Shown here in pieces: positions 10,096 through 45,748 of a stretch of 64,000 bases of DNA. The DNA is taken from contig CM059441.1 of NCBI GenBank assembly GCA_030390025.1, positions 21,018,001 through 21,082,000 of the forward strand. Direction: 5' to 3'. The notes under the pieces are model-generated. The model did no database searches and was not told the origin of the DNA. It worked only from the letters and a program-made list of their open reading frames with translations. How positions within the stretch are numbered: position 1 is the stretch's first letter; every line of letters starts with the position of its first letter. Source of the DNA: Squalus acanthias (lineage: Eukaryota). The position numbers and the translations under genes are program-made.

Positions 10096-10149
10096 TTTCT
10101 GACAGCAACAACAACTTGAATTTGATAATCGTCTCCCATTCATCCAGCA

Positions 10150-11584: not shown

Positions 11585-11654
11585 CGTTTTCTTCGCGAAG
11601 AACAGATCCGCACTTGTCGTTAGTCACCCAGCTCTTAGTTCTCATATGGGAATA

Positions 11655-22600: not shown

Positions 22601-22935
22601 TTGAGTTTTGGGTGGGACTGCCTTCTCCCAGAGTCTATTGTCCAAATGTTAATGTCTGCTGGGGCTTGAGTGAGGTCATCCTGGTTCCCCCAGACAGTGT
22701 AATTAACTACAATAGCCAAACTGCTTTTACAGAGGTCGACCCACCTCCTTGTCCCTTTACAGGCCCAGACATGTCTTTTAAAATGCCCAAACTTGGTTTT
22801 TGGTCTTAAATTCCTTATGTTATGCCCAAATGCATTTTTATCACTCTGAGGTAGTTCCAAAGTCCTTTTTCCTTAGGTTTTGGGGTTCTGCAAATTTTGA
22901 GAATCTTACACTTCCCACCGCCTGTAGCCCAGACT
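19649..22935 (+). mobile_element. PIF/Harbinger element B (Myb/SANT gene half, related to element A), truncated near the LTR insertion
   Basis: Terminus GGGGGAGAAATT at 19649. Exon 1 VERVRERAQRFSE...QCRKKFNDL (start codon now GTG). Exon 3 from 20845 has a 38-bp deletion near 21330 relative to copy 2. Confidence 0.85.
21541..22910 (-). mobile_element. Solo-LTR-like element family B
   Basis: TGTAGGGGGTGG...GAATCTTACA, similar to 4410-5823. Imperfect TSD CTTA/CTTC within Myb exon 3. Confidence 0.82.
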
Positions 22936-22959
22936 GAGCGTAGAATTGCTGGCATCTGG

Positions 22960-25484
22960 CGTCTGATCCAGCACCGCGCTCTCTACAGGCGGTCTGTGGC
23001 ATCGCTAAGCAGCACAAGAAACAGCGAGGTTCTTCAACCAATCAGATTGAAGAATCCTCACTGAGACACGCAGAGGGTTACATTGGATAACCCCTCAAAA
23101 TGCACGCAGGGATCGCGATACATGATTAACCCGTGTCCGTTAATTGCAATGCAGGCCGAGCACCAGCTTCGTGCTGTCTGTTCATTTCCATGATTTCTGT
23201 GTGCAGCCAGCGCTGTTCATTGGCTGCGCGCATCAGCAGGGGGCCAAATATCATGAGTGCCTAGTACTACTTAAAGCTGGCCTGCACCTCTTAAAGGGGA
23301 GGTGCATTGTGGCTGGTGGTGCTGCTGCGATCATTCTGAATATTATGCAATGGGAGAATCAACAATGGCTGACCATGGGAGAGAGTATGCACCGTGGTTT
23401 GTCGGACGCTTCAATGGAGGTCCTGGTAGAAGAGGTGGAAAGAAGGACCAATATCCTGTATCCTTATGGGGGAGGGATGCCCTCCAGACATATGCTCAGA
23501 AGGCAGCGGGAAGAGATCGTGGGGAAGGTCAAAGCCAGGAGCGTAGCCCCAAGCATATGGTTATGGTGCAGGAGGAGGTTCAATGATCTCACATGAGTTC
23601 TCAAGGTCAGTGAGTCCATCTTCAAATGCTCTAGCCTACCAACTGCACTACTAGCCTCATCCAGCATTCAATTCACTAAACCCCATCACTCACCTGCCAA
23701 CAATCTCAATCAATCAGGACTCGTGCAAAAAAGGTTCACTCGGTTAATCCCGGGGATGAGGGGGTGGTCATATGAGGAGAGGTTGGGTAGATTGGGACTC
23801 TACTCATTGGAGTTCAGAAGAATGAGAGGCGATCTTATTGAAACATATAAGATTGTGAAGGGGTTGGATCGGGTGGATGCGGGGAGGATGTTCCCGATGA
23901 CGGGTGAGACGAGAACTAGGGGACATAGTCTTAGAATAAGGGGCTGCTCTTTCAAAACTGAGATGAGGAGGAACTACTTCACTCAGAGGGTGGTAGGTCC
24001 ATGGAATATGCTGCCACAAAAAGCTGTAGAAACTACAACATTAATTAAATTTAAAACAGAAATAGACAGTTTCCTAGAAGTAAAGGGCATTAAGGGTTAC
24101 GGGGAGCGGGCAGGAATTTGGACATGAGTCTAGGTTCGGATCGGTCATGGCCCTGTGGGTAGTGGAGCGGGCCCAGGGACTGTGTAGCCTGATTCTGCTC
24201 CTATTTCGTGTGTGCAATTCTGTTAGATGCAGGAGATGGTTCTGTGATAGATAGTAGATTGGCGGTTAGGATCAGATCAGCCATGATCTTATTGAATGGC
24301 GGAGCAGGCTCGAGGGGCCGATTGGCCTACTCCTGCTCCTATTTCTTATGTTCTTATGTACCTAATATATGCTTTACCTCATCCTCAAACAGTTAGCACT
24401 GCTGCAAGCAAGCCTCACACCCACATCTCAAAGCTTGCACACACTGGCAGCTAGTCAACCATGACAGCCACATCACCCAAACATATTGCATGACATTCAC
24501 TGATAAACTTCCCTCTTTCTTGCAGGAGATGGTGGCAAACAACAGGAGGTGGCAGGAATTAACGGGAGATGGAAAGGCACGCCTGCATGTTTTAACCCCC
24601 ATGGAGGAGACAGTGCTGGCCATTATGGGAAGGGACATTGCTGAGAGCCCTTCCACCCTCATCCAACTCTCTCTTCTAGCAGCTTGTCCTGCTGTGAGTG
24701 GCCTCTGCTCAATCTCCCAGTCATAGACAATGCCAACAGGAAGCCCTACTAGGCCACCCATGCCTGGAAGCAACTGGTTTCTGCACAAGCCTTTAAGTCA
24801 CCAAAAAAGTACTTCAGCACCAGTCAGACCTCTCCCTGTAGACTATTGAAACTGTAAACAAGTATGGAACAGCACCCAAAACACGTAGAATTGCTGCAAC
24901 AGCTGAACAGGTGATACATGTGAGCCCAATTTCGCTCCCGCAGAGTCCAAACCAGGAAGTATAGACCATGAAGTATAAATTAGAGTTAAAACATGTACAG
25001 AAAGCAGAATAATATTAAGAGAGCGAGATAAAAGAGACAGACAGAAACAGTAAAAAAATTATTTTAATTTTTATTTTTTTTAAAGTCTCCAACACCAATT
25101 AAATTCTGAAGGAATGAGACTCCACAATTGTAAAATTAAATTTTCAGGGCCAGAGAGGTTGTTTTGCAGTAATAATGACTGTTCACACCATTGAAATGCA
25201 CTTACACCTGAATGCACCAGTCCTAACTTTTCTACTGTGTTTAGTGGGTAACTAGTGGGCAAGAACCACAAAATCACGCTCTTACATTGATTTCAATGCC
25301 AAGTCTATCGGCGAGGTACCGATGTAGCACAGCCTGTGGAGGAGCAGGGTAAGTCGGACCGCAACCGCTGGGTTTCCTCATTTAACAGCGCGTGTGCGTA
25401 CTCCGGACGTTGCTGTCCCATTTATTCCAAAATTACGGTGAGGGTTGTTAGCCTCGCCATTATTCTCAACGAAAAATCTGGGCC
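22960..25484 (+). mobile_element. Old Harbinger-derived element D (Myb exons 1-2 remnant)
   Basis: LSDASMEVLVEEVERR...WCRRRFNDL and QEMVANNRRWQELTGDGKARLHVLTPMEE. Terminus AAAATCTGGGCC at 25484. Confidence 0.7.
23723..24358 (+). mobile_element. 5'-truncated CR1 (HER1-type) insertion, copy-1 specific
   Basis: Intact RT C-terminus VQKRFTRLIPGM...YEERLGRLGLYSLE.RRMRGDLIE...IKGYG. Tail ...CCTATTTCTTATGTTCTTATG. Empty site at about 56270 (CAGGACTCATACCTAAT). Confidence 0.9.
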
Positions 25485-26068
25485 ATTGCTCCATCTCATG
25501 TAAAAGTGCAACACATTATGAGAGCTATCGGTTTGCAGTGAATGAATAAGTCAAGTTGCCTATTTCTTACAGATTATTGTTCATGTGTTAGTGATATTTT
25601 CAGGCTTAAAAATTGACAAAAATATGAAACAAGAATTCAAGTTGTGCAGACAGGTAGTGGGCACACAGATAAATTATTACTAATCTTTACAGGCCTCTAT
25701 CAGGTCACCCCTCGGTCTTCTATTCTCTATAGATATTTAAAATGCATTCCTAGACAATGCTGGTGGAGTTGTCTGGAACAGTTCTAACCATCACCTCTCA
25801 ATCTTACCACTGATGCCTGTTTTCAAAAGTCAACTTAAAAAAAGAAAACCAGTCCTTTATTTTCAAAACATATTATGAGAAGTCATTTATACTTGTTCCG
25901 TGAGGGAAGCATGTTGTCTTGTTTGAACCTTGTGTTGAGACATCTAAGGGACACTTTGTGAGACATTGGAATGGGGAGGTTGTGTGATGGTGTGGGTGAA
26001 AAGCGTCTCAAAGCTGTGGGCAAGCTTGTGGTTTGTTTTGGTTGCTTAATTTTCCCATTGTTATTGTT

Positions 26069-26435
26069 ACAAGATTCTGAGGGGGATTGACAAGGGTAGA
26101 TGCTGAGAGGTTGTTTCCCCTGGTTGGAGAGTCTAGGGCTAGGGGGCATAGTCTCAGGATAAGGGGTCAGCCATTTAAGACTGAAATAAGGTGGAATTTC
26201 TTCACTCAGAGGGTCGTGAATCTTTGGAATTCTCTACCCCAAAGGGTTGTGGATGCTGAATCATTGAGTATATTCGCTGAGATAGATAGATTTTTGGACT
26301 CTTAGGAATCAAGGGATATGGGGATCGGGCAGGAAAGTGGAGTTGAGGTTGAAGATCAGCCATGAGCTCATTGAATGGCAGAGCAGGCTCGAGGAGCCGT
26401 ACGGCCTACGCCTGCTCCCAATTCTTATGTTCTTA
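26069..26435 (+). mobile_element. CR1 3' fragment
   Basis: LFPLVGESRARGHSLRIRG...FFTQRVVNLWNSLP and HE1/HER1-type tail ending TTCTTATGTTCTTA. Confidence 0.85.
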
Positions 26436-27107
26436 AGATGTAGATAGAGAGACAACAACTTAAAGGACGTAACCGTTGTTTTGGTTCTGATTTTGCTCCA
26501 CTAATTAAATGTTCAAGTTGATTTAATGCGGAAATCCATTTTATTCTGTACAATTGTTAAACAAAATGTACAAAGCTGGATGAATAATAAAAATTTTGAT
26601 CACGACACACAATTCCATCAAGGTCGATGTAACCAGGGAATCTTCATTTTACCACATTGGTCAAGCTGTGACGATCTGATTCATTGATGAACTGAAAAAG
26701 AAAATATTTACGGCATCAGATTCATTGATACTGAGAACGATGCATTATTTTACATGTCAGGTCTGAACAGAATCCTGGAACTGGCAACAAATTGAGGAAA
26801 AGCTTGTGATGGGCTGGAGCTGTGTTGAGATCACACTCCTCCCTCCCCCAGCACTATTGCACGTGTGATGGGAAAAGGAGCAAGTTGTGTTGCTCTTGAA
26901 TACATGTAGCACCATTTTCTCACAGGCAACAAATGTTTCCCAGCAGCTGTGATTGTGGACAGTTGGCAACAGAAAAAGATTGACTTGGCTACTCTATTAA
27001 ATACATTTTCGATAGTCTAGTCGAGGTTGCCAGCAACAAATGCATTGTTGCTCGACTGGATAAATATGCCTCTGTGTTCTTGTGTGAAAACTGCTATCCC
27101 TGGTTCC

Positions 27108-27167
27108 CTACAGGAAAGTGCTTTTTTTTAGCCTTTTCCATTTCCTTCCTTCCTTTTCTTGTAACGA
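27108..27167 (-). CDS. Gene B putative last coding exon (cytoplasmic tail SLQEKEGRKWKRLKKSTFL*)
   Basis: ttgttattaacag acceptor in phase 0 inside a unique block (26440-27220) retained in both copies. AATAAA on - at 26540-26545. Confidence 0.45.
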   Translation of the reverse strand, partial: SLQEKEGRKWKRLKKSTFL

Positions 27168-30100
27168 CTGTTAATAACAATGGAATGAAAGTTGGGAGAA
27201 TTCTATAATGGGCGGGTTACATGGGATCATAGCAGCAGGAGCAGCCCATTCAACCCCTCGAGCCTGATCTGCCATTCAATTAGATCACGGCTGCTCTGTA
27301 GCTCAACTCCATTTACTCGCCTTTGATCCATATCCTTTGATATCCTTACCCAACAAAGATCTCATGATCTCAGCTGTGAAAATTTGAATTGACCCAGCAA
27401 CCACTGCCTTTAAGAATAGCAAGTTCCAGATTTCCACAGCCCTTTGTGTGAAAAAGTGATTCTGAATTTCACTCCTAAATGGTTTAGCTCTAATTTTTAG
27501 ATTATGCCCCTTGTACTGGATCCCCCACCGAGCAAATCTGACCCAGGCTCTGTACAACTGAAACATCACTTCTTCATTTTTGAATTCCAATCCCTGTAAA
27601 ATAAAGGCCAACATTCCATTAGCCTCTTTGATTACATTTGTACCTGTGCACTAGCTTTTAGTGACTTGTGTACATGGACACACAAATCTCTTTACTCCTC
27701 CACATCTTCTAGTCTCTCGCAACTAAGAAAATATTCCGATTTGTCTTTCTCTGATCCAAAGGGGCTGAACTCACACTTCCCCACATTGAACTCCATCTGC
27801 CATAGTTTTGCCCACTCACTTAGTCTTTCTATGTCCTTATGTAGCTTCCGCTCTAGAACGGGTGGGTGATCGCTCTGCAGAATTACCGCCTATGGTGTGA
27901 AGATGATACATTACCCCAGTGACACCAATTAGAAATAAAACGCTTGTCACATGGAGTTCTTTAACCTGGATTGAGCCTGTTTGGCCAGGGACTTCACCAC
28001 ATAATCTAGGCTGGCACTTCAGCGCCGTACAGAGGTAGCGCTCTGTTGTCAGATGAAATGTTAACTGAGGGCCCCGTCTGCTTGTTCAGGTGGACATAAA
28101 AGATCCCACGGCACTATTTGAAGAAGAGCAGAGGAGTTCGCCCAGAGTCCTGGCCAAAACAGATTATCTGGTCATTTATCTCCTTTGCTGTTTTTGGGAC
28201 TTTGCTGTGTGCAAATTGTCTGCCCCTTTTGCCTACAGAACAACAGTAACACTTCAAAAGTAACTCATTGGATGTAAAGAGCTGTAAAGTTTCGCAATTA
28301 TCGCGATTCGAAATAACATAAGAGAAGCAGATTCGTTTGATCAGTTTTATTAAACAAAATGCTGTCATGACACTGAAAGACGCCCTCGTAAGAACGGGAT
28401 ATGACGCTCGACTTGTCGATCGACAGTTCCGACGGGCCACAGCGAAAAACCGCATAGACCTCCTCAGAAGACGAACACGGGACACAACCAACAGAGTACC
28501 CTACGTCGTCCAGTACTTCCCCGGAGCGGAGAAACTACGCCATGTTCTTCGCAGCCTTCAACATGTCATCGATGACAACGAACACCTTGCTAAGGCCATC
28601 CCCACACCTCCACTACTCGTCTTCAAGCAGCCGCCTAACCTCAAAAGTACCATCCTTCACAGCAAATTACCCAGCTTTCAGGAGAACAGCGACCACGACA
28701 CCACACAAACATGCCACGGCAACCTCTGCAAGACATGCCAGATCATGGACACAGATACCGTCATCACACGTGAGGACACTACCCACCAGGTACATGGTAC
28801 ATACTCATGTGACTCGGCCAACGTTGTCTACCTGATACGTTGCAGTAAAGGATGCCCCAGAGCATGGTACATCGGCGAGACAATGCAGACACTGAGACAA
28901 CGTATGAACGTACACCGCGCAACAATCGCCAGGCAGGAGGGTTGCCTCCCAGTCGGGGAGCACTTCAGCAGTCAAGGGCATTCAGCCTCGGATCATCGGG
29001 TTAGCGTTCTCCAAGGTGGCCTTCGGGATACATGACAACGCAAAATCATCGAGCAGAAACTGATAGCCAAGTTCCGCACTCATGAGGATGGCCTCAATCG
29101 GGATATCGGGTTCATGTCACGATACAGAACGTGGCTTGACATCGTTGCCGGTCTTTCCAGCTTTTTAAAAAATCTAACACAAGAAACAAACACAAGAAAC
29201 AAACCCAAATGGAGAGGATATGCAGCCAGCAGGTGTTTTGACACGTTGGACCCCCTGGGACACATCTCATTGTCTTGGCTGTGCTCTTAGTGTGTCTTTG
29301 ATGTTGAATGCATTTTCTCTGTGTTTATATTCTGTGAATTCTGATAGATTGTCTCACAGTAACTTTACCTGAGGAAGGGGCGACAGCTCCGAAAGCTTGT
29401 AATTTTAAATAAATCTGTTGGACTATAACCTGGTGTTGTGCGACTTCTCATTTTTGTCCACCCAAGTCCAACGCCGGCATCTCCACATCATGATAATAAA
29501 GGACACAGAAGCCTGTAAAATGGCCACCGTGCATCGTGGCAGAAGCTTCCAGAAATACAGTGGGCAGACAAGATGGCGTCGAATAAACATTCAATATAAG
29601 ATTGGATCATACTCGGTAAACATTGATAAATACAGGATGCAACCCGTTTGCATTTGAAACAATAGCAAAGATATAAGTGCTGGAATCGTTTTTCCTATGC
29701 ACAGCAAGAACCATTGTACTGGGCAATCGAAGGCCCATCCAGACACATCAATACACAAATACCCCCACGGCTCTACAATGAGAGAGACATTGATGGGTGA
29801 TTAAGTCAGTATTCGGGGAGGCCCCAAAACCAGTCAGGAGACTCCTGGCTGGGTCAACAATGGGGAAAACATTAACGGATAGTTGGCCAGTTTCAGGTGC
29901 TACCGAAACCCGTTAAAGAGAAGAATCGCCCCATGCTGGGAGTTTTGTGCGCCAATATTACACAAAGGACAAACATTAAGATGTGAGCGGGAGATAAGGG
30001 GACACAGCACTATAACTATAGAGAACAAATGTCCATCGGTCTCTTATTCTCCCAGCTTATCCTTATTCTCGGGTATCGCTCTGCTGGATGAGCAACCTTT

Positions 30101-33100
30101 TGTGTTTCTCTGGACTATGTTGACTCTTGACTCTTAGCCGTACTGGTCGGTTATTCGAATGTTGGGTGGAGCTCAATCGGAACGAGCCACCCCGACAAGG
30201 GCAAGTAACAGGGTACACCATCCCGAGTGTCGGTAAACGGTGTCTGGACCCAGAGGCCCGAAGAGACGAGACGAGACGAGAAGAAAAGGAGAAGAATCCA
30301 CATGCCGCCACGGTCAGTAAACCCCGACCGCACCCGAAAATATAAATAAAGAACTTTTCATTGAAGTCTACCGACAACCGGTATCGAGCACAGGAAGGCT
30401 CTTCTTTGAACTGTGTCCGAGGTCCGTCGAGTTCTTAATGACAACAGGGAGTCTGGCCTGCTTGTCGCAGCAGCGAAAATAAACAAGTGGGGTACAGAGA
30501 CCCTTCTAAACACGTGACAGTCAGGCGCTGCAGCGAAACGAGCTGAGTGCCTCACTTTAAAATTCTCCGAATTAACACGAGTGGTGAGCATGTTTTCCAA
30601 TCCTACAAATCTAGACGTAGTGTAGGCATTGTTAAGGGAGGGTGGTTTCATTAAGGTTAAAGTATAATGTGTTCCCCTTTTTACGATGTGCCGTGCGTTC
30701 TTCATTTCCATAGACCAAGCTTTATGAATGTATGTATACTTGTACTCTCGTTAATTTGCGCCTATGACATGTACTTCATGATTTTGGACGCTATGCAATA
30801 AAGATTTCCATTTCGTACTATTCAACCGGGTCTATTTGAGTTTTCTCTGCATTACTGCTCCCTGCACCTAAGTCCAGTGTTAGAACCGTAAGGGCGAGTG
30901 GGTCAAACCACTCACAGGTGCTTATTGCAAAAAGGCTGGCCGGAGACCAGAGCAAGCAATAGTATTAGGCAACGAAGGCCTAACCTCGCACCAGCACCGT
31001 CTGAGACACGCAACCCTTACAGAGCTTGGGACATCTTGAAGACATGAAAGGCTCCATGTAAATTTTATTACAAGGATCTTCAGTGATAAAGTCAAGCTTT
31101 TGTTTATTAGTGGAAGTTATCCTAGACTAATACTGCTGATCACTTCTGGATGGATGCAGCCACAACAAGGCTCAAGAAGCCCGACTCCATCCAGAACAAG
31201 CAATCCATTGGATTTTGCCTACATTAGAACAGTAAACTTTCAAAACTAACTCATATTATCTGTAAAACACTTTGTTTCATCCTGAGGACATGAAAGAGTT
31301 TATGTAAATGCAAGTTTTTCTTTACACTGATCAATATTTTTGAAAGAATTGATGGTGTGATTCATATAAAGTCGGTAATGCCTACCTTAGATTTTCTCGT
31401 ACACCTTGTGACTGAAATAGTACAAATCACCAGGAGGGCAAAGAGCACCCAGCGTACCACGTTCCATATAATGTAACTGAGCAAAAGAGAAGAAATACAA
31501 AATAATTCGAAGGAAACAAGACTGCTTTGTGTTTGGAACATTTATAATGGGGGGAATTTTCCGGGGGGTCAGCGGACGGGATCAGGGGTGGGTCGAGTGG
31601 GAAAGTTGTTTTTTTTTGACAGCGGGTTGTATCCATGTTGCCACTGTCCCTTTTATTCCATGGGCTTCAATTTTGCCGGTAAGCCTATTTTGTGGCATTT
31701 TATCAAACACATTTTGGAAGTCCATGTACACCACATCAACCGCATTGCTCTCATCAACCCTCTCTGTTACCTCATCAAAAAACTCGATCAAGTTAATTAA
31801 ATACGATTTGCCTTTAACAAATCCATGCTGGCTTTCCTTAATTAATCCACACTTGTCCAAGTGACTGTTAACTTTGTCCCTGATTATCATTTCTAAAAGC
31901 TTCCCCACTACCAAGGTCAGACTGACTGGCCTGTAGTTGCTGGGTTTATCTTTACACTCTGTTTTGAACAAGGGTGTAATATTTGCAATTCTCCAGTCCT
32001 CTGGCACCACCCCCATATCTAAGGAGGATTGGAAGATTATGGCCAGTACATCCACGAGTTCCTCCTTAACCTCCCTCAGCATCCTAGGACGCATCCCATA
32101 TGGTCCTGGTGACTTATCAACTTTAATTACAGACAGCCTTTCTAGTACCTCCTCTTTATCAATTTTTATCTCATCCAGTATCTCCACTACCTCCTCTTTC
32201 ACTATGACTTTGGCAGCATCATCTTCCTTGGTGAAGACAGATGCAAAGTACTCATTTATTACCCCAGCCATGCCCTCTGCCTCCATGCGTAGGTCTCCTT
32301 TTTGGTCCCTAATCGGCCCCACTCCTCCTCTTACCCGTTTATTATTTATATGCCTATAGAAGACTTTTGAATTCCCTTTTATGTTAGCTGCCAGTCTATT
32401 CTCATACTCCCTCTTTGCCCTTCTTATTTTCTTTTTCACTTTTCCTCTGTACTTTCTATATTCCGCCTGATTCTCACTTGTATTCTCAACCTGACATCTG
32501 TCATACACGCTCTTTTACTGCTTCATCTTATTCTCTATCTTTTTCGTCATCCAGGGAGCTGTGGTTTTAGTTGTCCTACCTTTCCCCCTTGTGGGAATGT
32601 ACCTCAACTGTACCCGAACCATCTCCTCTTTAATGGCAGCCCATTGTTCGATTACTGTTTTTCCTGCCAGTCTTTGATTCCAATTTACCCGGGCCAGATC
32701 CGTTCTCAACCCACTGAAATTTGCCTTCCTCCAATTAAGTATTTTCACTCTAGATTGCTCCCTATCCTTTTCCATAGCTGATCTATACCTTATCATACTG
32801 TGATCTCTGTTCCCTAAATGTTCCCCTACTGACACTTGCTCCATTTGACCCACCTCATTCCCCAGAACCAGATCCAGCAATGCCTCCCTTCTCGTTGGGC
32901 CGGAAACGTACTGATCAAGAAAATTCTCCTGGACAGACTTCAGAAATTCTTCCCCATCTCTACCCTTTACACTATTGTGAGAAGTCTCACAACACCAGGT
33001 TGTAGTCCAACAGATTTATTTGAAATCACAAGCTTTCGGAGCGCTGCTCCTTCGTCAGGTGAAGGAGCAGCGCTCCGAAAGCTTGTGATTTCAAATAAAG

Positions 33101-36100
33101 CTGTTGGACTATAACCTGGTGTTGTGCGACTTCTCAAAATTTGTCCACCCCAGTCCAACACCGGCATCTCCACATCATGGCTGCTTTACACTATTACTAT
33201 CCCTGTTTATATTAGGATAATTGAAGTCCCCCATTATCACTACTCTATAGTTCTTGCTCCTCTGTGTAATTTTCCTGCAAATTTGCTCCTCTATATCTTT
33301 CCACTAATATAGAATACACCTAGTCGTGTAATGGCACCTCTATTATTTCCTAACTCTAACCAAATAGATTCTGTCCTTGATCCTTCCAGAACATCCTCTC
33401 TCTCCAGCACTGTAACATTCTCCTTAACCAATAATGCCATGCTACCTCCTTTCTTTCCTTCCCTATCTTTCCTGAACACCTTATATCCTGGAATATTTAA
33501 AACCAACTGCTGTCCTTTTTCGAGCCAGGACTCCGTTATCACTACGACATCATATTCCCATGTGACTATTTGCGTCTGTAGATCACCAACCTTATTTACC
33601 AAGCTTTGTGTGTTTAAACACATGCACTGTAGTCCTGTCTTAGACCTTCTTGTATTCACTCTTAATCTGACCCCACCTAATACCTTACTATTTCTTACTC
33701 TAGTGCTATCTGTCTCTCCCCATCCTTTGTGCACTTTGTTTCTCCTTTCTGAAGCTACATCCTGGTGCCCATCCCACTGCCAAATTAGTGTAAACCCTCA
33801 GCAACAGGACTAGCAAACCCCACCGCCAGGACATTGTTTCCGGCTCTGTTGAGGTGCAACCCGTCCGTCCTGTACAGGTCCCACCTCCCCCAGAAATGGT
33901 CCCAATGTCCCAGGAACCTGAAGCCCTCCCTCCTGCACCATCTCTCCAGCCATGCATTCATCTGTTCTATCCTCCTATTTCTATACTCACTAGCCCTATC
34001 ACCGGAAAATCATTTCACAGAGTGGGATAGAGCCAGCAGCGGGGCAGCGACCCGCCAACGACATCGACCACACTGGACACACCAAGGTAAGTAAAATCCC
34101 GGCCCTCCTGTTTACACTGTAATCTTAGTACCGTGCATCAATGTAGAGCAGCAGAGCCGAGGGATTACATAGGATTAGATCGGATATACGGCACAGAAAC
34201 AGGTAATTCGGCCCAACCAGTCCATGCCGGCGTTTATGCTCCACTTGAGCCTTCTCCCGTCTTTCCCCATCTAACTCTATCAGCATAACCCTCTATTCCT
34301 TTCTCCCTCATATGCTTATCTAGCCTCCCCTTAAATGTATCCATACTATTTGCCTCAACTACTCCCTGTGATAGCAAGTTCCACATTCTCACCACCCTCT
34401 GGGTAAATAAGTTTCTTCTGAATTCCCTATTGGATTTCTTGGTGACTATCTTATATTGATGGCCTCTAGTTTTGCTCTTCCCCACAAGTGGAAACACCCT
34501 TTCTGTATCTACTCTATCAAAACCTTTCATAACTTTAAAGACACCCATCAACCTTCTTTTTTCAAGCGAAAAGAGACCCAGCCTGTTCATCCTTTCCTGA
34601 TAGGTATACCCTCGCATTTCTGGTATCATCCTTGCAAATCTTCTCTGCACCCTCTCCAGTGCCTCTATATCCTTTCTATAATATGGCGACCAGATTTGTA
34701 TGCAACACTCCAAGTGTGGTCTAACCAAGGTTCAATACAAATTTAGCATAACTTCTCTACTTTTCAATTCTATCCCTCTAGAAATAAACCCTAGTGCTTG
34801 GTTTGCTTTTTTATGGCCTTGTTAACCTGCTTTAGCTGGGAAAGTAAACTAATGTTTGACTTCTGGAGGAAAGTCAACTTTGTGATCATTAGATAAAGAT
34901 CAGATGAAGCAAACTTCATTAACATGTCCACAATGTATAGCTGTAATGGTAAGCCACAATTTTATAATTGAGGACTTTATAAAAGTGACTGGCCATCTGA
35001 GGGAAGCACCGCTGCCGGGGGACATGTAGCAATGTTGAGATATCTCTTCAGGGAGTCAGGATAGTCAGAACAGCATCATCCTACACTGCTCTCATGCACC
35101 TTCTAACAGGCAATTGCTGAGCAGCTGGAATCAGGCAGCCTCCTCACCCTCTCAGTTTGGGAACAGTGTATAACATCGGGAACTGAGAAGGAGTAAATGA
35201 CAGAGAATGCAACTTTTCTGTCAATGCCACTCCAGAACAGATAAGGACAAGAAAACTGGCATTGTGCTAGTGTGGCATGCACAACTCCATAAGATTAACT
35301 TCGCGTTGAAATAATCAAGTTGAATAATGCAAAGAACACGATCTAAGGAGCGGCAAAATGGAGGCGCTTATTTTTTATTCTTATTTTCCACCAACAAAGA
35401 TAGCACCTTCATTAGGAAGCTAACACAACAGCATGATGTAAACCCAGCCAGCATTTTCATTCTGATGCGCATTTACATTCTGAAATAATAAATGATTTTC
35501 ACCCCTTATGATAAAATTATTTAAAAATTCGGTTGCTTTGCGCCTCCCGTTAGCGCCCGAGGGGGCATAAAGAACCTAGCGCCCAGGCGCGGTGCTGCTA
35601 ACACCTCCTGCGAAATTCAGCGGGAGGTTAGCGGCGGTGGTAGCCGGGAGCGCCCTGTGGTGCTGCGCCTCCGGCGATGATGTCATAGCCTGCTCGCGCC
35701 CCGGCTGCAAACTTTGCTCCCTCCCCCGAGCTACCGCCGAACGCTGTGTCTGACAGGGTCAGGGTGCCATGTTTGTGGCCGCGGCGGCGCTAATTTAAAG
35801 GCCAGGTGCCGAGCGGCTATATTTTTTTGGGCCGCCTGCCAGCACCTGCCCCCTCTCGCCTCATCTTGTGGGGTGCCGGCCGCGATCGAGCGATTGATCT
35901 CTTGCCGGTACCCCGCTCCCTGGTGGTCCAGCAGGGCCCCGGTGCACGCTACGCTAGGCCCCTCCCCTTTAATCAGGGGAGGGAGGCCTGCAGTTCCGCG
36001 GCGCTTGGGGCCGACACGCCTGCCGCTGCTGCACGTAGCGCCGCGATATTCAATGGGAGCACCCCAAGAGGGAGCGGGAGCGCTTCCAGTAGGGCCCCGC

Positions 36101-39100
36101 CTCCTGCTTGGGGTGCTACCATTCAACTTCGGGCGCGGGGGCGCTAACTTTTTCGGAGCGCTAAAAGTAGTGTCCCGGCGAAGTTATCGCCGCAAAGGGG
36201 CCGTGAGCCAATTTCCCCCCGAATCTTTCACATGGAAGCCGTGCCAATCAAAACACCAGCAATGAGAACATTGTACCTGCTCGGCCATTTGGATCCTGAA
36301 GTTTGGTTTCGATTATCAGTGGAAATTATATTTGTACTTGTGGAATGTGTAGTTGTTGATGATACTGTTGAAAAAACTTCACAAGAATATTCAGCTCCTA
36401 TTGAAACAAGGGAATAAAATTCAGATTCACCTCATTTTCACTTGTAGTCAACCAAGAGAGCACTATCGTTAAATGGAGCCTCATTACTTGAGTAAAAGCC
36501 TGGTTGATATCATGGATTTGGATGATTTAATTCCTGTGTAATTTCCTCCTCTCTGGTAGCAAGGAGAGATGCTGCTGACACCTGGCCGTGGCCCATTTTT
36601 ACTGATAATTTCTGTTTCTTTCCCATTTCTGAGAGTTGGTGGCACAGAGTTACTACTGGGGCAGTTAAAGGGATCAGGTTGGTGGGACTACAAACCAGGT
36701 ATCCCCATTTTTGCCCGGTGCAAACATAAAGGAAAGTTCCAGCCAGAGAGCTGGCCTCTGCCACCAGTGGAAAATGTATTTCTGGGGGCCGAGCAACCAC
36801 AATTCTGTCCTGGAGAGATGTCCTCAGTGGAAAAGGAACAGCAGCTGTTCATTGAGTGCAGAGGGAAATATTAGACCAGGAATTACTGCTCTCGATATTA
36901 GTGGACAACCAGTTCAAATTCGAATGGCGTTTCTCTGTTAAAAGAATGTTTCTGTTACAACATAGACAGACGAATGTCACACGAATACATTAAACAGTGT
37001 CCTGCTAATATTGGCAATGGTCATTTCCTGCCTCTTGTGCTCGGATTTCTGAGCTTGTGGTAGCGACGAGAATCCTCACTCACTGGCAGTGGATATCGCA
37101 AAATCCTGCCAGCGATTTTCTGTCCATTTAATTATAATGATCAGCGTTGCTGGCGGGAGAGGCTCCCCACCTCCAGCGAGAACTCAGATAAGTGGCTCAG
37201 GTGAGTTTTAATTAAATAATTTGTTTCAAAATGTAAGAAATAACTCGCATTGATACAGCATCTTCCACATTCTCAGGATGTCCCAAAGTGCTTCACCACC
37301 AATGAAGTACTTTTTTGAAGTGTAGTCACGTTTGTAATGTTGGGAAACGCGGAAGTTAATTTGCGCAAAGCAAGATCCCTCAAACAGCAATAAGATAAGT
37401 CGCCAGATAATCTGTTTTTTAAGTGATGTCAGTTGAGGGATGAATGTTTGCTCGGACATCAGGAGAACTTCCTTATTCTTCTTTGACTAGTGCCAGGGGA
37501 TCTTTTACATCTACCTGAGGGGGCAGATGGGTCCTCAGTTTAATGTCTCTAGACAACAGCACCTCACTACCAGAGTGCTGGTCAGTGGTTTCAACCTGAA
37601 TTATGGGGGAGAAATTCATTATAGCCCCGATTGGGGCGCTAATTTTTAAAAGTTGAAAAAATTAGCAGCAGGCGCTAATGTCATTCAACTTTTAAAAGAT
37701 TCGGTTTTAGCGCTCCAGGAAGGAAGTGGAGCGCTTGATTTAGCGCAACAGGCAGTGGGCGGGGCGGTGGGTGAGCAGCGCTGTACACTGGGCCGTGCAG
37801 CGCTGCCTCGTTGGAAGGCTCCTTCCCTCCCTTAAAGGGAAGGGCCATCGCTGCAGGCTCTGCAAGGGGAAAACTTACCTGGTGCCTGACGGCAGCCACG
37901 ATCCGGCCCAATCAACGGCAGCAGAGACTCGGGCTGATCGATCGCGGGCGAAGAAAAATGCAAAATAAACAGAACCAGCATTTCCAATTTTTTTTGTTCC
38001 TTACCTCGGCTACCTCGCCTTTAAGTATCGCCCCCAAAGTGCCCGGCCGCCCGATGAACGCCTCCTGCAGCTGTCGGTGTTTTCACCCAGCGATGCTGCA
38101 GGGAGCGGAATCGAAGTTCGGGTCTGGGGCACTACCGGAGCGCTGACATTACCATCTCCGGGCGAAGGAGATCGGGGCGCAACACCATACCGCCACCGCA
38201 AACTTCTCGCGAGTCGATCTTCTCACCGCGCCCAGCTAGTAAGTAATTACCACCCCATTATCGCCCCCCCGGAGGCGATATCTGGAGGCACAAAGGTGCC
38301 CAATTTCTCCCACCGATATCTCTAGAGGGGGACTTGAACGCACAACCTACTGGTATCAGAGGCAAGAGCGATAGCAACTGAGCAACTGCTGACACCTACA
38401 GTACAAATGCAATTTACAGGTGAAATTTCTACCTGCTGCTGACATCCTTCTTGTCTGACAGCTAAAGGAAGTGACTATATTAACATACGGCCGGAGTCAA
38501 TATTTACATATGTTAATTTATATGCATTACTGCTCAGGAGAAAATACATTTCTCTTTGTTTTCTGACCGTTTTGATGTTTCTCAGCGCAACCAATGGTGA
38601 ACATATTGCTTCCCACTCTGCGGAAAATTAAATCGCTACATTTAAGTAGGCTAAGTTCCTCCTCAAGTCAGAACCAGGGTCATTGTTTTATGGTGACTGA
38701 GTAATTCAGTTTTTAACTGTTGAAGGATCCAAATGGAGTGAATTTGGTCAGTTATAGTTTCTCTGAGTGACTGAAGGAAATTAACTAGCGACCAGTTTGG
38801 ATAAACATTAATTTAAAAAATTCATTAATCATGTTGTTTGTTTAAAGTAACACTTACCAATGCCGCTGATTTGTGTCACATAACTGCAGTTCTTCCCTGC
38901 TCTGTTGAAGACTGACATGTTAACCATTTCACTGGATTTTTCCCCCTGATTATTTGAGGCTGTGCAGTAATATTGATGATGTTGCTGTTTGAAGGATTGA
39001 CAATGTAGATCCAGTTTATTGGTGTCAGAGATCTTTGAATCTTCAGACGGGGTCTTTTCGTACCATGTGTACTGAATGGGAAGAGATCCCTGGACAGACT

Positions 39101-42100
39101 CACAGGAGACTGACACTGAGCCCCCAAAACATGAGACATTTGGTGGCGACAAAAATCTAAGTACAGGAACTGACACGGATTCTGTGGGAAAGAAACAAAC
39201 ATTCAGATACTGACTGAACATCTAAAAATCAAATACTCTCCAATTTCCAGCACTTCTGTATCTCAGCCAGGGCCTGCGATGTTGGAATCTCACCAGCACA
39301 TCTACCTCTCCATGTCTCTCCACCCTCCGAGCAGCCTGAACTACCATGTCTGCCATTATAGCAGAACATAGCAGAGCTCCCGATCAGGACAGCAGCAATG
39401 ATACTGAGGATGTGTCAACGGGAAAATTAGAGCTAACAATTTCTCTCAGTAGCAAGTAGCCAGCCTCCAATGCTGTTTCTTTGTTTGACTCTCGAACATG
39501 AATTAGTTGGAGAGAGTCCTAGAAAATCACAGCCGAATATGAGGGAAAGAAATTGGCAGATATCTGTTACATGTTTTGTCTTTGCCACAAACTGTGCTCA
39601 GAAACAGTTCTGCCAAAATTTGCTACTGCTTGCGAGCCTGTCCCTGAGCACTTTTCTACTCACACTCCCAGATCCATTGAAAATTTAACAGGCGGTCCTG
39701 AACATAGAAAAGGGAGGAGGACATTCAGCCCCTCGAGCCTGTTATGCCATTCAATTAGATCTCGTCTGATCTGTATCTTAACTCCATCTGCCCGCCTTGG
39801 TAGAGATTTCCAAATTTCGATGACCCTTTGTGTGAAGAAGTGTTCCCTGACATCACCCTCAAGATGCGCTTCAGTTTCCTGGACAGATCTGGACGCGCCC
39901 TTCAGTACTCACCAGCCAGAGTCTCCAGAACGATTGTGGTTTGCTGCGCTCTGCACAAAATTGCGCAGCAGTGAGATTGGAGCTGCATGAGAAACAAGGC
40001 GCTGAGCACACATTGTCTACGGACAAATCCGAGACGGAGGAGAAAGTGGGAAAGAAGCAGGAGGAGGAGGAAGGAGATTGCGACTCCAACGCAGCACCAG
40101 TCACTCACATTGCTGCCCGCGATGCCAGCGTTTCCCTTATAGCTGTAAGGTTCAGTTAGTTACCACCACTGGACCGATGTAACAACCACATCCAACAGCC
40201 AGTCTCAACTGCCCCGCCCCCCTCCAATCCCACTGACACAAAGCAGACCTGCTACCAACCAACCACCCATTGCACATCCCCCCATTGCTCCCCCTCAATT
40301 CATGTCTTCCCATTCATTAACGAGCAACTGAAAAGGCGAGCTGCCACCAAGCAACCAAAAATGGGCAACACGGGAAAGTGGTGCAAAGTAATATATTTTA
40401 TGTGATTCTGCTAAAGAACAGAAACTTAACAACATAACAATTTCTCAAACACACATGTGCAGACCCTGTGCAACTACAAAACTTTACTCTTCCTTTTCCT
40501 ACCGCTCCTACGTGGTGCAACCCTCATGGCTTCAGCAGAGGTCGAGGCAGGCTGCTCAGATCCCTGCTCTGACTGCTGAGATGCTCTTGGTCGATGACCT
40601 CTGGGTTTGAAGCCCAACGTGGCCCCCGCCAAAGACTGCTCCATTGCACCTGTGCAGGGGCAGACACAGCCATTGGGAGAGGAGGCAGCATTCCTCTCAT
40701 GGCCCAGCCGCACTTCACTCCTACCACTCTGCTGGAGAGCAGCTTGGTGCAGATCAGTGACGCGCTGTAAGGCCAAGGCTAAGGTGTCTGCCATCCTATT
40801 TAAGGCAGCAGACATGTTGGCATCCAGAGTCTGCACGGCCGTGGTCAATGCCTGTGTGGACTCATTTGATTGTCGCAACTGATACTCGACGGAGTTTGCC
40901 AATCTGTCCATGGAACAAGACATCCTCGCAATGCCCTGTGACATCAACCCACTCATGCTTGAGGTGTACTCCTCCAGTCTCTCTGCAATTGTGGACAGTG
41001 TGCGTGGAAGGCCTGTCAGTATGTAGCTGATTTTCTGCTGCCCCACAATGATTAGCCTTTTAATCGACAGCCCCCGGGGTACAGCACCTGTGTCCAGTTG
41101 AGCAGAGTTTGGAGAGTGCTCTGCCCTCCGACGTGGACTCTCCGCAGTTGTCCCTGCCACCACTGTTGGCTCTTGCTCCCTTGTGAAGTGTGATTTATGA
41201 GGTGAAAACCCAACTATCTGTCTATCTGGACTCACTGAAGTGTGAGTATCTGCATTGGTGCGTGGTAAGCATGAGTCCTGTGATGGTGCACCCTCAGAAG
41301 GAATCAGCTCCTCTGAGGATTCATCGTCCACGAGGTCCACTGACGGCTGCTGCACATGTGAAGGCCCTGACGGAGAGAAAAGATATGAATTAGTACTGGC
41401 AAGGTAAGGATGTAGCAACTTATCATTATGAAGATGATTATATTAAACTCATTGCTGAAATCAGGTCAACATGACTGAGTGTTTTATGACATGTGGGCCC
41501 ATGATATTTAATTCTGTCACCAGGTTGCTGGGAGGTCCCCATCTCCAATGGCCAGGGACGGCGAGTTGCCACTGATCTCCAGCGCTTCCTCCTCTGCAGT
41601 TGTCAGCTGTGAGATCTGTCAAGGACCACCTCAGGTTCTCTCTCTCTCTCCCTAGTTTTCTGCGCTCTCTTCTCCTGCAACGGGAGAAAGAACAGACCTA
41701 TGAGTGACTGTAAGACATGTGTTCACCCGATGGATGCAGTGCATATGGTGAGGGTGACTATCAGCGAGCGGCATGAAATTACATAAGGATCAAGGTGAGT
41801 GGCAGTGGTGGATGGAGAGATGGGGATGTGAGGAAGTGCATAGAAAGAGAAGGATGTGTGTGCGTGCAGAGTAAGTGGATGTGACGAGTGATGTGATGGA
41901 GTAGGCTTGACAAGACAGGGTGAGGGGGTGGGTGATGTTCTCAATGGGTAGTAGGTGAATGAGCAACTGTGCTCACCTTTCCTAAGCTGGTTAGGTCATT
42001 AAAGAGCTTCCTGCGCTGACTCCAGCAGCGTGGTATAATGCTCCTGCTGCTGACTTCCTCGCTCTCATCCAGGCACGGGTTCTTTGTAGCTTTTTTCCTG

Positions 42101-45100
42101 CCATTGCTGGGGGTGGGCCCGGATAGCTCAGTTGGTAAAGCATCAGACTTTTAATCTTGAGGGTCCAGGGTTGAAGTCTCTGTTCAGGCGTTAGCTTTAC
42201 CAGCTTGGACTCGATGGGCCGAATGGCCCCCTTCTGTGCTGTAACCATTCTCTGATTCTATGGTCCCTCTCTGACTCCTCACTGCCTCCAGCAATGCATC
42301 AAGGGAGGCGATGTTAAAGCAGGGTGCAGCTTTCCAATTCCTGAGTCTGTCTTTTATGATTGTTGTCCCTGTTCCAAAGCACCCTAATCCTGCAAATTCC
42401 ATCTTTGAATTGACCAGTTAAATACTTGAGTTGAGATCACATCATGACGGTCCACACCACACCCACTACTGCACATACAACACCAAACCCGGGAGTAAAA
42501 TTATAATGAGCTGGCTGCATTAAAATGCCACATACAGACGCACTGAAATTACTTCGGGGTTTCCCATGCGATATCGGATCCCCTGTACCGAGCACGCCTC
42601 GAAGTTAATATCGGGCCATTGCATTTAATAGTTGATCCATCAGGAGGTATGATTGGGAGGAAGATAATGTCTCAACAATTAATAAAGAGGCTTCTTTTGC
42701 CATCAAAACAGTGACCTGGCTTTTCAATTTTAGTTTAGTTCTCTTGTAAAGTTGACCAAAATATCTCATTGATGATGTGAGCCACCCATCATATCAGGAA
42801 ACCTATGAAATCTGTTAAGCTCTGTGGATTGATTCTATTATTATTTTGTCCTAGGAATTCATACCATTAGTAACGACTTGCTACTCATTGCTTTTGTTAT
42901 TGTCCGACTATTAGTTTTAGTCTGAATGCAAACATCTGACATTTAATACAGTTCAGAGACAGGAAAATGTGGTGAGCATCCCACATGATGTCTGGCACAA
43001 TATCCTGTAGTTAAAGGAATTCTTCGTCCCATAATACTTGAAATTCTTGGTCAGCTAGTTGGACAGGCCACAAATTGGGAATGTTCAACATGAGTCGGAT
43101 TTCCCGACCTCTGCCCGCTACCTGTGAGACTCTGCACTGCTGCGGAGCCTCGGGATATCGGAGCTGTCATGTTTCCTCCCAGATAAAACATTGATCAGAC
43201 ATTTCAGTAGAGAGTAATAAAGAAAATCACTGAGAAATGTACCGTAAGATATTTGTAGCTCTACAGCAGACAATGGATTGAAGGCGTGAGATTTTTCAAT
43301 CCCACAGCTGTACCATCCTGCATCTCCTGGTTGAAGATCCTTCATAGTAACATCAAATATTCCTGCTGTCTTGTTATCTGTGATTGACATTCTTCGTCGT
43401 CTTCCGTGTTGATCATTTGTTTTTACTAAATCTGAACAACTGATAGTTGTCCCGTGACACCAATATTTCACATTTGACTGGTACTCCGATTTGTCATAGT
43501 GACATTCTATTGTGATCGCTCTTCCCACAACTCCTGTTACTTTATCTTTTACCCACAATGCACCTGAAACTGAGGAGACAACATTTCAGAAATTGAACAG
43601 GAAATAACTGCTTAATACAAACAGATACATTTTAATAAGAGTTACCACTCTGTACAGAGGAATCTCTCCACTCCATCTATTAATACAGTTGAATTCCTTC
43701 TAGTTTGTGATGAAAGGAAACATTAATATAGTGCCTTATCACATCCTCAGGATGTGCCAAAGCACTTCACAGCCAATGATTTACTTTTGAAGTATAGTCA
43801 CTATTGTTATTGTGTCAGCTGTGGCTCAGTGTTTGCACTCTCGGCTCTGAATCAGTAGATTGTGGGTTCAAGCCCCACTCCAGAGACTCTGAGCAGAAAA
43901 TCGAGACTGACATTCCAGTACAGTATTGAAGGAGTGCTGCACTGTTGGAGGTGCCGTCTTTCAGATGAGACATTAAACCGAGACCGTGTCTGCCCTCTGA
44001 TGTGGATTCCCATTATTTGAAATAAGAGCTGGGGAATTCTTCCCGGCGTCCTTGCCAACAATTTTCTTTCATCCATCATTCAATACGAAACAGATTATCT
44101 GGTCATTATCACCTTGCTGTTTGTGGGACCTTGCTGTGTGCAAATTGGCTGACTCTTTTCCTACATTACAACATTGGCAACACTTCAAATAAATCATTGG
44201 TTGTAAAGCACTTTGGGGCATCCTGAGGTCATGAAAGGCGCTACTTAAATGCAAGTCTTAGTTTCTGACAGCAACAACAACTTGAATTTGATAATCGTCT
44301 CCCATTCATCCAGCACCATGGGAACAGCCAAAGGAATGCCCATCCTCTCAGCTTCGTTGCTGCAACCTGAACTGCAGCAGGATTTGGAGAGGGAAGGTGA
44401 ACATGGTTCATGCAACCAAGGACATAGAAAGGAAGAGGATTGCGGATCGGCAAGGGAAGATTCAGGAACTTGGAGATAGATCAATGAGCAGGATATCGAG
44501 GGTAGTAACCACAGGATTATTCCCAGTGCCACATGGTAGTCAGTATAAGAAGAGTAAGGTAAGGAAAGTGATTATTTGTCTGGAGAGATGGTTCAGAAGA
44601 AAAGGGTTTCAATTCCTGGCACATTGGGGCCAGTTCTGGAAGAGGAGCGGCCTGTAGAGGACGGGAGGACTTTACTTGAACAGTTATTAGACCAATGGCC
44701 TTGCTGGGAGAGGAACTCGTGCTGTGGGGAAAGAGTTTACACTAAAATAGCCGGTGTGAGGTTAAAAACAAGGTAAAGAGGCAGAGAGAAGAGCAGAAAG
44801 GGAAAAGGATATAGGAATGATAAATGAGGGAAACAGGGAGGTAAAAAACATCAGATCAGAAAGAGGAAGGATTGAAAAAAAGGAAGATTGCCAAACAGAC
44901 AGAGGCACGCGTCAGTTGCATGTAGATAAGAACATAATGTATTCTGTGTAAAATTGGTAAGCTAGAGGCACAAACTTTTATGGAGAGGTTTGATGTAATA
45001 GAATTAACGGTCGTGGCTTCGGGTAGGGTGGGACTGGGAGTTTAACATTGCTGGTAACAAAGATTTGTCATAAATGTAGGAGAGTTGTATTAATCAAAAA

Positions 45101-45748
45101 TTCCATTACAGCCTAATGTCGTAGGGTTAATATGGGGCGGGAGTGAAAAAGCTAAATCTACTTGGTTAGAGTTAAAGAGTGAGAAGAAAGTGGTTACTTA
45201 CTGGAAGAGTAAAATAGACCAACCCTCTACCAGTGAGGAACAGTGTCACTGACAGAGCCTCATGAAACAATATTTCATCAGATGTACTTTAAATAACAGA
45301 AACAATTGCAAACTCGAGACATGTTCAGTGTGAGGGATTATTACTGCTGCAGTCTTCAGTGTATATTGGACAACAGACTACATTAAAAAATCACTTCACA
45401 GATTAAAACAGGTTACCTTTGCATTTGATTATGTTATTTGTGTAGATTTTAAAAACATTAAATGAGCCCTTTATTTTCCATTCACAATGAATAATGCAGT
45501 TTAGTATATATTGGTCAATATTTGTGTGGTACAATAGTACAGTCAAAAAGAGATGAGAAGACTTCACACAAATATTATTCATGTATATTTTTGCTGGGTA
45601 TTTTGTGCCTTTACATGTCTACAAGTATTGAAACCTCTCTGCTCTATAAACGGTACACTAGACTCAAACTAACACTGATTATCTGAATATCCCGCTCTGG
45701 CTGTCACTCACCGGGCAGGGAACAAATGAGAAGAATCAGAATCCACAT
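27108..45748 (-). CDS. Ig receptor gene B, complete 6-exon model (about 319 aa): CD300/pIgR-like V + FcR-like C2 + stalk + TM(Arg) + short tail
   Basis: Exons 45748-45712, 43569-43243, 39181-38858, 36397-36277, 31476-31386 and 27167-27108 sum to 960 nt with consistent phases 1,1,1,2,0. The last exon is the least certain. Confidence 0.8.
27230..27846 (-). mobile_element. Degenerate CR1 3' fragments
   Basis: MLAFILQGLEFKNEEV...KGHNLKIRAKPFRSE...FFTQRAVEIWN...IKGYG. Confidence 0.75.
28371..29492 (+). mobile_element. Penelope-like retroelement 3' fragment (linker Zn-finger + GIY-YIG endonuclease + 3' pLTR)
   Basis: CHGNLCKTC...NVVYLIRCSKGCPRAWYIGETMQTLRQRMN.HR...VGEHF. Premature TGA at 29033. 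3' end ...CCGGCATCTCCACATCATG. TCATGA at both junctions. Confidence 0.9.
29365..29402 (+). ncRNA. Minimal type I hammerhead ribozyme (Penelope-associated)
   Basis: TTAC-CTGAGGA-A-GGGGC-GACA-GCTCC-GAAA-GC-T-T-GTAA: stem I TTAC/GTAA, core CUGANGA...GAAA, 5-bp stem II, loop-less palindromic stem III (AAGCTT). Confidence 0.75.
31386..31476 (-). CDS. Gene B exon 5: transmembrane segment
   Basis: ttcttctcttttgctcag acceptor, 91 nt, phase 2-0, gtaggc donor. Reads SYIIWNVVRWVLFALLVICTISVTRCTRKSK. Confidence 0.88.
32977..33183. mobile_element. Penelope pLTR remnant forming a near-perfect inverted repeat
   Basis: Arms of about 75 bp around GTCAGGT. Flanked by the 12-bp duplication CTTTACACTATT (32965-32976 / 33184-33195). 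Confidence 0.88.
33026..33062 (-). ncRNA. Minimal type I hammerhead ribozyme (Penelope-associated)
   Basis: Minus strand TCAC-CTGACGA-A-GGAGC-AGC-GCTCC-GAAA-GC-T-T-GTGA: stem I TCAC/GTGA, intact core, palindromic stem III. Confidence 0.78.
34165..34830 (-). mobile_element. CR1 3' fragment (second subfamily)
   Basis: LVRPHLECCIQIWSPYYRKDIEALERVQRRFARMIP...FTQRVVRMWN...IEGY. Confidence 0.85.
35522..36220. mobile_element. GC-rich Harbinger-type MITE
   Basis: CpG-rich, repeated TAGCGC/GCGCTA motifs, right terminus AATTTCCCCCC. No credible ORF. Confidence 0.65.
36277..36397 (-). CDS. Gene B exon 4: Ser/Thr-rich stalk
   Basis: cttgtttcaatag acceptor, 121 nt, phase 1-2, gtacaa donor. Reads GAEYSCEVFSTVSSTTTHSTSTNIISTDNRNQTSGSKWPS. 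Confidence 0.85.
37236..38395 (-). mobile_element. DeuSINE copy split by a MITE
   Basis: Deu core (reverse) at 37350-37415. tRNA-like head (reverse) at 38325-38395. Confidence 0.65.
37605..38313. mobile_element. Harbinger MITE with terminal inverted repeats
   Basis: GGGGGAGAAATT ... AATTTCTCCCAC termini and internal TAGCGC motifs shared with elements A and B. Confidence 0.75.
38858..39181 (-). CDS. Gene B exon 3: C2-set Ig domain
   Basis: 324 nt with the same splice sites as gene A exon 3. Five amino-acid differences (Y/F, I/V, K/E, I/V, V/M). Confidence 0.9.
39857..42617. mobile_element. Harbinger C remnant, duplicate without LTR insertion
   Basis: Duplicate of 4268-8451. ORF 40474-41418 covers Myb exon 3. 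Confidence 0.85.
42117..42262 (+). pseudogene. tRNA-Lys(TTT)/CR1-tail chimera, duplicate
   Basis: Same sequence as 7951-8096. Confidence 0.82.
43243..43569 (-). CDS. Gene B exon 2: CD300/pIgR-type V domain
   Basis: 327 nt, same splice sites as gene A. Differs by K/T, R/Q and D/N. Confidence 0.93.
43812..44260 (+). mobile_element. DeuSINE duplicate
   Basis: Duplicate of 9646-10095. Confidence 0.78.
45712..45748 (-). CDS. Gene B exon 1: signal peptide
   Basis: MWILILLICSLP G|gtgagt, identical to gene A. Confidence 0.9.

Follow-up and report, generated by a model that had tools for sequence, protein, structure and literature searches.

An MDIR-family receptor gene with a membrane arginine in a tandem array of the shark Squalus acanthias

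In a 64,000-nucleotide stretch of the genome of the shark Squalus acanthias (assembly GCA_030390025.1, contig CM059441.1, positions 21,018,001 to 21,082,000; called the window below), a minus-strand gene, here named gene A, encodes an immunoglobulin (Ig) V domain of CD300/pIgR type, a C2 domain loosely resembling those of FCRL proteins, and an arginine-bearing transmembrane (TM) segment. Does this chain represent a new combination of two mammalian receptor lineages, as the initial annotation of the stretch proposed, or does it belong to a family already described? The claim of novelty fails because both domains, the TM segment and the tail match one described family, the skate MDIR. In the V and C2 trees both domains fall with MDIR3 and MDIR5, an outcome that the annotation itself had named as speaking against it, and chains of V plus C2 also occur in bony fish, amphibians and a crocodilian. 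Gene A adds a further MDIR to a shark cluster, and its architecture has stood in GenBank since the work on skate MDIR. It is an intact, MDIR5-like member of this family with an arginine TM, and we consider it probable that it works as the activating partner in a paired system of leukocyte receptors. In the mechanism proposed, ligand binding would fall to the CD300-type V domain, the C2 domain together with a cysteine hairpin and a glycosylated stalk would serve as a spacer keeping V off the membrane, and the membrane arginine would recruit a chain of FcRgamma/CD3zeta type bearing an ITAM (the tyrosine-based activation motif of immunoreceptors)—a recruitment proposed because the tail of gene A has no tyrosine of its own.

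Apart from the last exon formerly assigned to it, gene A is real. Five in-phase minus-strand exons with GT-AG ends encode signal peptide, V, C2, stalk and TM without a stop across the splices, the junctions resting on splice signals, phase and homology; the motifs quoted in the initial annotation all lie on the minus strand where it had placed them. With a corrected sixth exon, the gene reads as follows.

45712..45748, minus strand: exon 1, with the start codon and the larger part of the signal peptide (75-100% identity to homologous signal peptides where matched)
43243..43569, minus strand: exon 2, four-cysteine V domain of CD300/pIgR type; a second possible acceptor lies at 43563; Asn110 where CD300lf has Asp98
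38858..39181, minus strand: exon 3, C2 domain of MDIR type that loosely resembles FCRL5; additional Cys139, Cys182 and Cys220
36277..36397, minus strand: exon 4, Cys235 (likely in a hairpin with Cys220) and a Ser/Thr-rich stalk (18 of 35 residues Ser or Thr)
31386..31476, minus strand: exon 5, TM helix with Arg278 in an N-x-x-R setting and basic stop-transfer residues
26644..26691, minus strand: exon 6 (corrected), 15-residue tyrosine-free tail and stop; intact in copy C, a tandem neighbour described below

The six phase-compatible exons proposed earlier stand for the first five; the sixth is most likely 26691-26644, beyond the coordinates then given. When every AG site from the TM exon to the following gene, 1427 in total, was scored against 22 homologous tails, this candidate came first (score 38; runner-up 27; mean -5.4, SD 8.3), and it has a clean pyrimidine tract, with AATAAA/ATTAAA hexamers (26545, 26527) about 100 bases downstream of the exon. 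The tail exon proposed previously, 27167-27108, was rejected: it ranks outside the top 12 of these sites and in copy C has lost one base. After the correction the product has 315 amino acids, and the short tail without tyrosine that had been described survives the correction; read-through at the TM donor may also give a seven-residue tyrosine-free tail. At the other end of the gene, two acceptors six bases apart (43569 and 43563) would yield a signal peptide with or without Val-Ser. The V exon most likely begins at the upstream AG, 43569, adding these two residues, since Val-Ser is seen at 33 of 36 matched homologous junctions (two of the 36 are without it).

Relatives were sought with each domain: out of 114 candidates 21 were obtained with V, and out of 244 candidates 136 with C2 (120 of these 136 being listed). 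Together they make up 121 proteins, many of them partial or fusing neighbouring genes. All 121 are named from sharks, rays, skates or chimaera, and two are the skate proteins MDIR5 (ABC86800.1) and MDIR3 (ABC86797.1). Searched with these relatives by tblastn, the window holds one V exon and one C2 exon only between the signal and TM exons of gene A. Aligned with the last V-C2-stalk-TM-tail module of MDIR5, gene A is 53% identical across 298 columns (E 1e-101); the TM region reaches 56% over 36 residues, and the alignment runs through the tail. Models from a sawshark (79%) and a sevengill (71%) are the closest of the relatives compared. In a V tree of 42 chosen rows, a clade of 14 rows (96/91) unites gene A with every one of the five MDIR3/5 V domains, apart from turtle pIgR, and in a C2 tree of 31 chosen rows it falls in a 12-row clade with all four MDIR3/5 C2 domains (94/91, just under the starred level), to which its C2 is 60-70% identical, and not with the FCRL-like rows. 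Four extra cysteines, which the initial annotation did not notice, mark the C2 domain and the start of the stalk (139, 182, 220 and 235) and are absent from the FCRL-like and CD22-like rows of the C2 alignment; of these, Cys220 and Cys235 likely close a hairpin.

The V-C2 module and the extra cysteines are shared with both MDIR5 and MDIR3, to which the family comparison extends (MDIR1, MDIR4 and skate MDIR2 lie outside it), and MDIR5 also has the arginine TM and a short tyrosine-free tail. In contrast to MDIR5, which carries four Ig domains in two modules (V-C2-V-C2), gene A has one V and one C2 domain, a longer stalk, and asparagine rather than lysine three residues before the arginine. It is termed MDIR5-like, not MDIR5, because it does not have four Ig domains. 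The original MDIR paper, that of Cannon et al. 2006, reportedly described in its abstract MDIR5 as being without signalling motifs and MDIR1 as having a charged TM residue. When the MDIR5 TM segment was used to look for short proteins, one of four candidates was found, which was not MDIR1.

The family exists in paired forms, one with an arginine TM and one with tails bearing ITIMs (the tyrosine-based inhibitory motifs of immunoreceptors). In a pattern count over the 121 relatives, 34 combine an arginine TM with a short tail, 55 have an ITIM-like motif in the last 160 residues and 32 have neither; in alignments, a near-identical MDIR ectodomain precedes either type of TM. The arginine goes with short, mostly tyrosine-free tails, whereas the ITIM-tailed twins have uncharged TM segments. 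MDIR are likewise described as a multigene family with activating and inhibitory forms (PMC3031540, which refers to Cannon et al. 2006, PMID 16738934). An ITIM-tailed partner of gene A is not visible within the window, beyond which the end of copy B, its other tandem neighbour, lies. Six public models (P0002, P0004, P0013, P0017, P0018 and P0048) fuse neighbouring MDIR genes, with further Ig domains, mostly after a new signal peptide, following the TM; long 'titin-like' or 'pIgR-like' models in MDIR clusters should be read with care.

That the TM is of activating type, as first annotated, finds support in the arginine, which is invariant among relatives, in its N-x-x-R setting and in the tail without tyrosine. 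With the arginine masked in the query, it was kept in 45 of 45 TM matches of at least 30 bits; six weak matches form the uncharged class. CD300 TM segments carry a central lysine or glutamate, whereas the arginine of gene A is near the outer end. Sturgeon, skate, manta, chimaera and whale shark have receptors (P0179, P0190, P0205, P0245, P0102), V-only or of mixed CD300/pIgR-like kind, that also carry the Arg-Trp TM, and this exon looks like a shared activating module. The literal N-x-x-R of gene A is a mark of FcRgamma-coupled mammalian receptors of the leukocyte receptor complex (LRC), as set out in PMC6557307 and PMC4536121, and for the N-x-x-R TM1 class of Xenopus XFL receptors FcRgamma was needed or helpful in co-transfection (PMC2413239); the word 'shark' was not found in the accessible portions of PMC2413239 or PMC4536121. 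TM1 receptors—Xenopus XFL, LILRA, FcalphaR, GPVI, OSCAR and NKp46—resemble gene A in the arginine near the N-terminal end of the TM, the N-x-x-R and the short tail, but differ from the MDIR in ligand domain, which in the latter is of V type, and in the setting of the arginine, which in the MDIR is Trp-x-x-x-Arg-Trp. Judged by sequence, adaptor coupling of gene A is likely, and the adaptor could be of CD3zeta type.

The V domain is of the CD300/pIgR four-cysteine type claimed for it. It matches Pfam V-set (E 4e-13) and, in the PDB, pIgR, CD300lf, CD300a, TREM2 and NKp44; the match to CD300lf has an E value of 2e-15 and a single-domain score of 60.1, and Cys35, Cys50, Cys57 and Cys101 provide for the second, C-C' disulfide of CD300. 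MDIR and CD300 (CD300lf, CD300a) have in common this four-cysteine V, an FG-loop aspartate as family consensus, and paired activating and inhibitory forms. CD300 proteins have a single Ig domain, whereas gene A adds the C2 domain and cysteine hairpin and has asparagine at the Asp98 position. In CD300lf, Ca2+ and phosphocholine are held via Lys94, Gly96 and Asp98, and the cleft also contains Trp89 and Met100 (PMC6166816). The MDIR consensus places Gly, Asp and Met at the CD300lf spacing from the F-strand cysteine. Aspartate occupies the Asp98 column, placed by spacing (the FG loop in the window is one residue longer), in 92 of 115 first V domains, in 161 of all 276 V domains, and in all eight rows from bony vertebrates. 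The AlphaFold model of a homolog, P0106 (63% identical to the gene A model; mean pLDDT 79), superposes on CD300lf with a root-mean-square deviation of 1.4-1.5 A over about 110 columns and has two extra strands after C2 and a single TM helix. The Foldseek whole-chain ranking of this model gave generic two-Ig matches and was uninformative; the single-domain match to CD300lf was used. In both gene A and copy B, a run of four arginines precedes the D strand (V exon, about 43390-43375), a possible basic patch where relatives mostly have a stretch containing Gly and Gln.

From these sequence features we infer that a lipid or cell-surface ligand is favoured over Ig for the MDIR V domain. The family ligand would be a Ca2+-bridged phospholipid or similar surface ligand at a CD300-type FG/CC' pocket, not Ig Fc, and Asn110 of gene A would weaken or change this Ca2+/lipid site relative to copy B. 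Ig binding, for which gene A had been a candidate, is not favoured because the CDR1 (complementarity-determining region 1) motif of pIgR D1 type is absent: it was found neither in the window nor in any of the 121 shark, ray and chimaera relatives, and among the proteins collected turtle pIgR and four other matches alone have it. We take the CDR1 loop of pIgR D1 to be the Ig-binding site. It therefore seems rather improbable that gene A is a receptor for shark IgM, IgW or IgNAR, pIgR/FcmuR-like through its V domain or FCRL-like through its C2 domain and signalling through an adaptor, even though pIgR (for V) and FCRL5 (for C2) are the top PDB sequence matches and many relatives bear the NCBI names 'polymeric immunoglobulin receptor-like' or 'Fc receptor-like protein 5'. 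The rank of pIgR is a sum over five domains, and the V domain of gene A lies apart from those of turtle pIgR in the V tree. pIgR does share the superfamily branch of this V domain, but gene A has one V and no long trafficking tail. The FCRL-type C2 of the initial annotation is correct in that FCRL5 is the best PDB match; the likeness, however, is loose. The best single domain reaches 32.8 bits (independent E value 6e-7), a weak match, and Pfam gives a sub-threshold match to Ig_C17orf99; FCRL5, FCRL4 and C17orf99-type Ig domains resemble this C2 by weak per-domain scores, and the FCRLs have neither a V domain nor the extra cysteines.

How gene A may have arisen is suggested by its neighbours. 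Tandem amplification, already suspected, is supported by three copies (A, B and C) that lie at least partly in the window and repeat every 32-35 kb at about 98% identity.

11548..11584, minus strand: copy B, signal exon
9077..9403, minus strand: copy B, V exon; three amino-acid differences from A, with Asp at the CD300lf Asp98 position
3236..3559, minus strand: copy B, C2 exon; stalk, TM and tail of this copy lie beyond the window
63289..63379, minus strand: copy C, TM exon; peptide as in A, one base different
58557..58604, minus strand: copy C, tail exon; intact, two residues differ from A
5823..39994, no strand: tandem repeat unit (about 34 kb, approximate), running from the V-C2 intron of B through V and signal exons of B, the spacer, and the tail, TM, stalk and C2 exons of A

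A second copy of the unit extends from about 39994-40400 to past the window end. On the V side, A and B differ by 102 substitutions in 8956 positions (1.1%), on the C2 side by 105 in 1693 (6.2%), the divide lying at about 40,400 (Fisher p 6e-32, sites treated as independent), and the TM-tail half of gene A is about 98% identical to copy C. The repeat unit therefore breaks in the V-C2 intron, since the A/B divergence jumps there while the other half of A matches C. The simplest reading is that an activating gene lying upstream and a paralog lying downstream of it underwent unequal crossover, by which gene A would consist of the signal peptide and V of B joined to the C2, TM and tail of C. The Asn/Asp exchange at the Asp98 position is one of only three differences between the V domains of A and B, and over 227 codons A and B differ by eight non-synonymous and two synonymous changes, too few for a claim of positive selection. 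Copy B may be inhibitory, because an ITIM-tailed gene follows an arginine-TM gene in the sawshark model.

A haplotype mis-join would produce the same divergence pattern, and the repeated unit, 98-99% identical and differing by insertions, invites the explanation that gene A as a unit is an assembly artefact, two haplotypes having been joined in the V-C2 intron to give a false duplication, with B and C as the real genes. We hold this to be quite unlikely: relatives in many shark and ray genomes as a rule form clusters of multiple copies, several insertions of kilobase scale set the copies in the window apart, and catshark, epaulette shark and thorny skate have V-C2-Arg-TM genes with a single module (P0125, P0106 and P0129). 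As to repeats, the intron of copy B after the C2 exon contains an element at 807-2997, with inverted copies near 19648-21539 and 52157-54086 and a Myb/SANT-like reading frame near 2460-2200, which resembles a PIF/Harbinger DNA transposon. The TM-tail intron of gene A holds, on the plus strand at about 28360-29130, a stretch that by eye resembles the GIY-YIG endonuclease remnant of a Penelope-type retroelement. Minus-strand reverse-transcriptase remnants resembling a long interspersed nuclear element, presumably of CR1 type, lie at about 31700-33900, with copies at 12453-13667, 46617-47831 and 63640-64000 (about 91% alike).

Several findings weigh against gene A being an adaptor-coupled, CD300-like activating MDIR. 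In its ectodomain, the V domain scores 44.8 bits with pIgR D5, about as much as with some CD300 members, the C2 tree, which calls for caution, wrongly places three CD22-like outgroup rows inside the MDIR group (long branch, 85/16), and asparagine stands in gene A where copy B keeps the aspartate. The tail of copy B lies outside the window, its reading as inhibitory being drawn from likeness to the sawshark model. Within the membrane, the asparagine of N-x-x-R is found in 5 of the 45 relatives' TM segments (lysine in 17, aspartate in 12) and is not a family trait; gene A has neither the D/T of the DYT consensus nor the C-terminal acidic residue described for LRC TM segments, and its tail is on a separate exon, unlike that of Xenopus TM1. 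As to the adaptor, Akula et al. 2014 (PMC4016189) detected no homologs of FcRgamma, pIgR or FcRL in such shark genomes as were available at the time, our literature search for a shark FcRgamma turned up no paper showing one, and a catfish LITR did not need its TM charge to bind adaptors (PMC4810170). If gene A were a non-signalling adhesion or decoy receptor without an ITAM chain, its arginine might be structural, placed at the outer membrane interface; the early position of the arginine in the helix predicted from the homolog model (264-292), the variable asparagine, the lack of signalling motifs reported for MDIR5 and the reported absence of FcRgamma all fit this view. Invariance of the arginine in every one of the 45 TM segments, its presence in gar, teleost and amphibian proteins, and the usual paired-receptor split between arginine with short tails and uncharged TM with ITIM tails nevertheless make it unlikely.

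The MDIR5-like, activating reading of gene A leads to the question of how old such chains are. A profile search of 1.84 billion representatives gave 3246 matches at E 0.001, of which the best 150 were listed, 130 of them new. Among the matches listed, V-C2 modules occur beyond sharks in eight named animals: arapaima, spotted gar, Hoplias, two frogs, a caecilian, a newt and a gharial. All eight proteins keep the four extra cysteines of C2 and hairpin, and each of the two trees sets them in a separate clade (C2 96/91, V 99/99). Six of these eight lineages (arapaima, gar, Hoplias, both frogs and the newt isoform P0255) have the Arg-Trp TM, which was not seen in the caecilian and crocodilian models. 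A catshark and a newt protein align from end to end with 29% identity (E 4e-34), and one unnamed cluster of 82 members in the ESM Atlas is the top hit for both a shark protein and a gar protein (0.95 and 0.98), which is a lead only. Because bony fish, amphibians and a crocodilian have the V-C2 module too, the chain is, by this sequence comparison, older than the split of sharks and bony fish; it did not come about in sharks by joining two mammalian lineages. A more far-reaching interpretation, to which we give only tentative credence, is that V, six-cysteine C2 and arginine TM together constitute an overlooked ancestral activating receptor of jawed vertebrates—unnamed in gar, teleosts and amphibians, kept as an ectodomain in crocodilians and amplified in sharks—whose TM would be the oldest arginine-type module for ITAM adaptors; gene A would then be a paired receptor caught at birth by crossover in the V-C2 intron, its Ca2+-binding aspartate having since changed to asparagine. 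Were this true, sharks would have FcRgamma-type signalling despite the report of its absence in 2014.

In the accessible portions of the literature searched, no function for the MDIR family was found, and public models of MDIR relatives are misleadingly named pIgR-like, FCRL5, A33-like or titin-like. The value of the locus, which we rate as moderate, lies not in a new architecture but in the overlooked spread of this chain across vertebrates, its testable arginine and aspartate sites, and the fresh chimeric origin of gene A. The conserved arginine, the conserved CD300-type aspartate and the natural Asp/Asn pair of copies B and A offer direct handles on leukocyte activation and its ligand in cartilaginous fish, and the counterparts in bony vertebrates open such tests to fish or amphibian cells.

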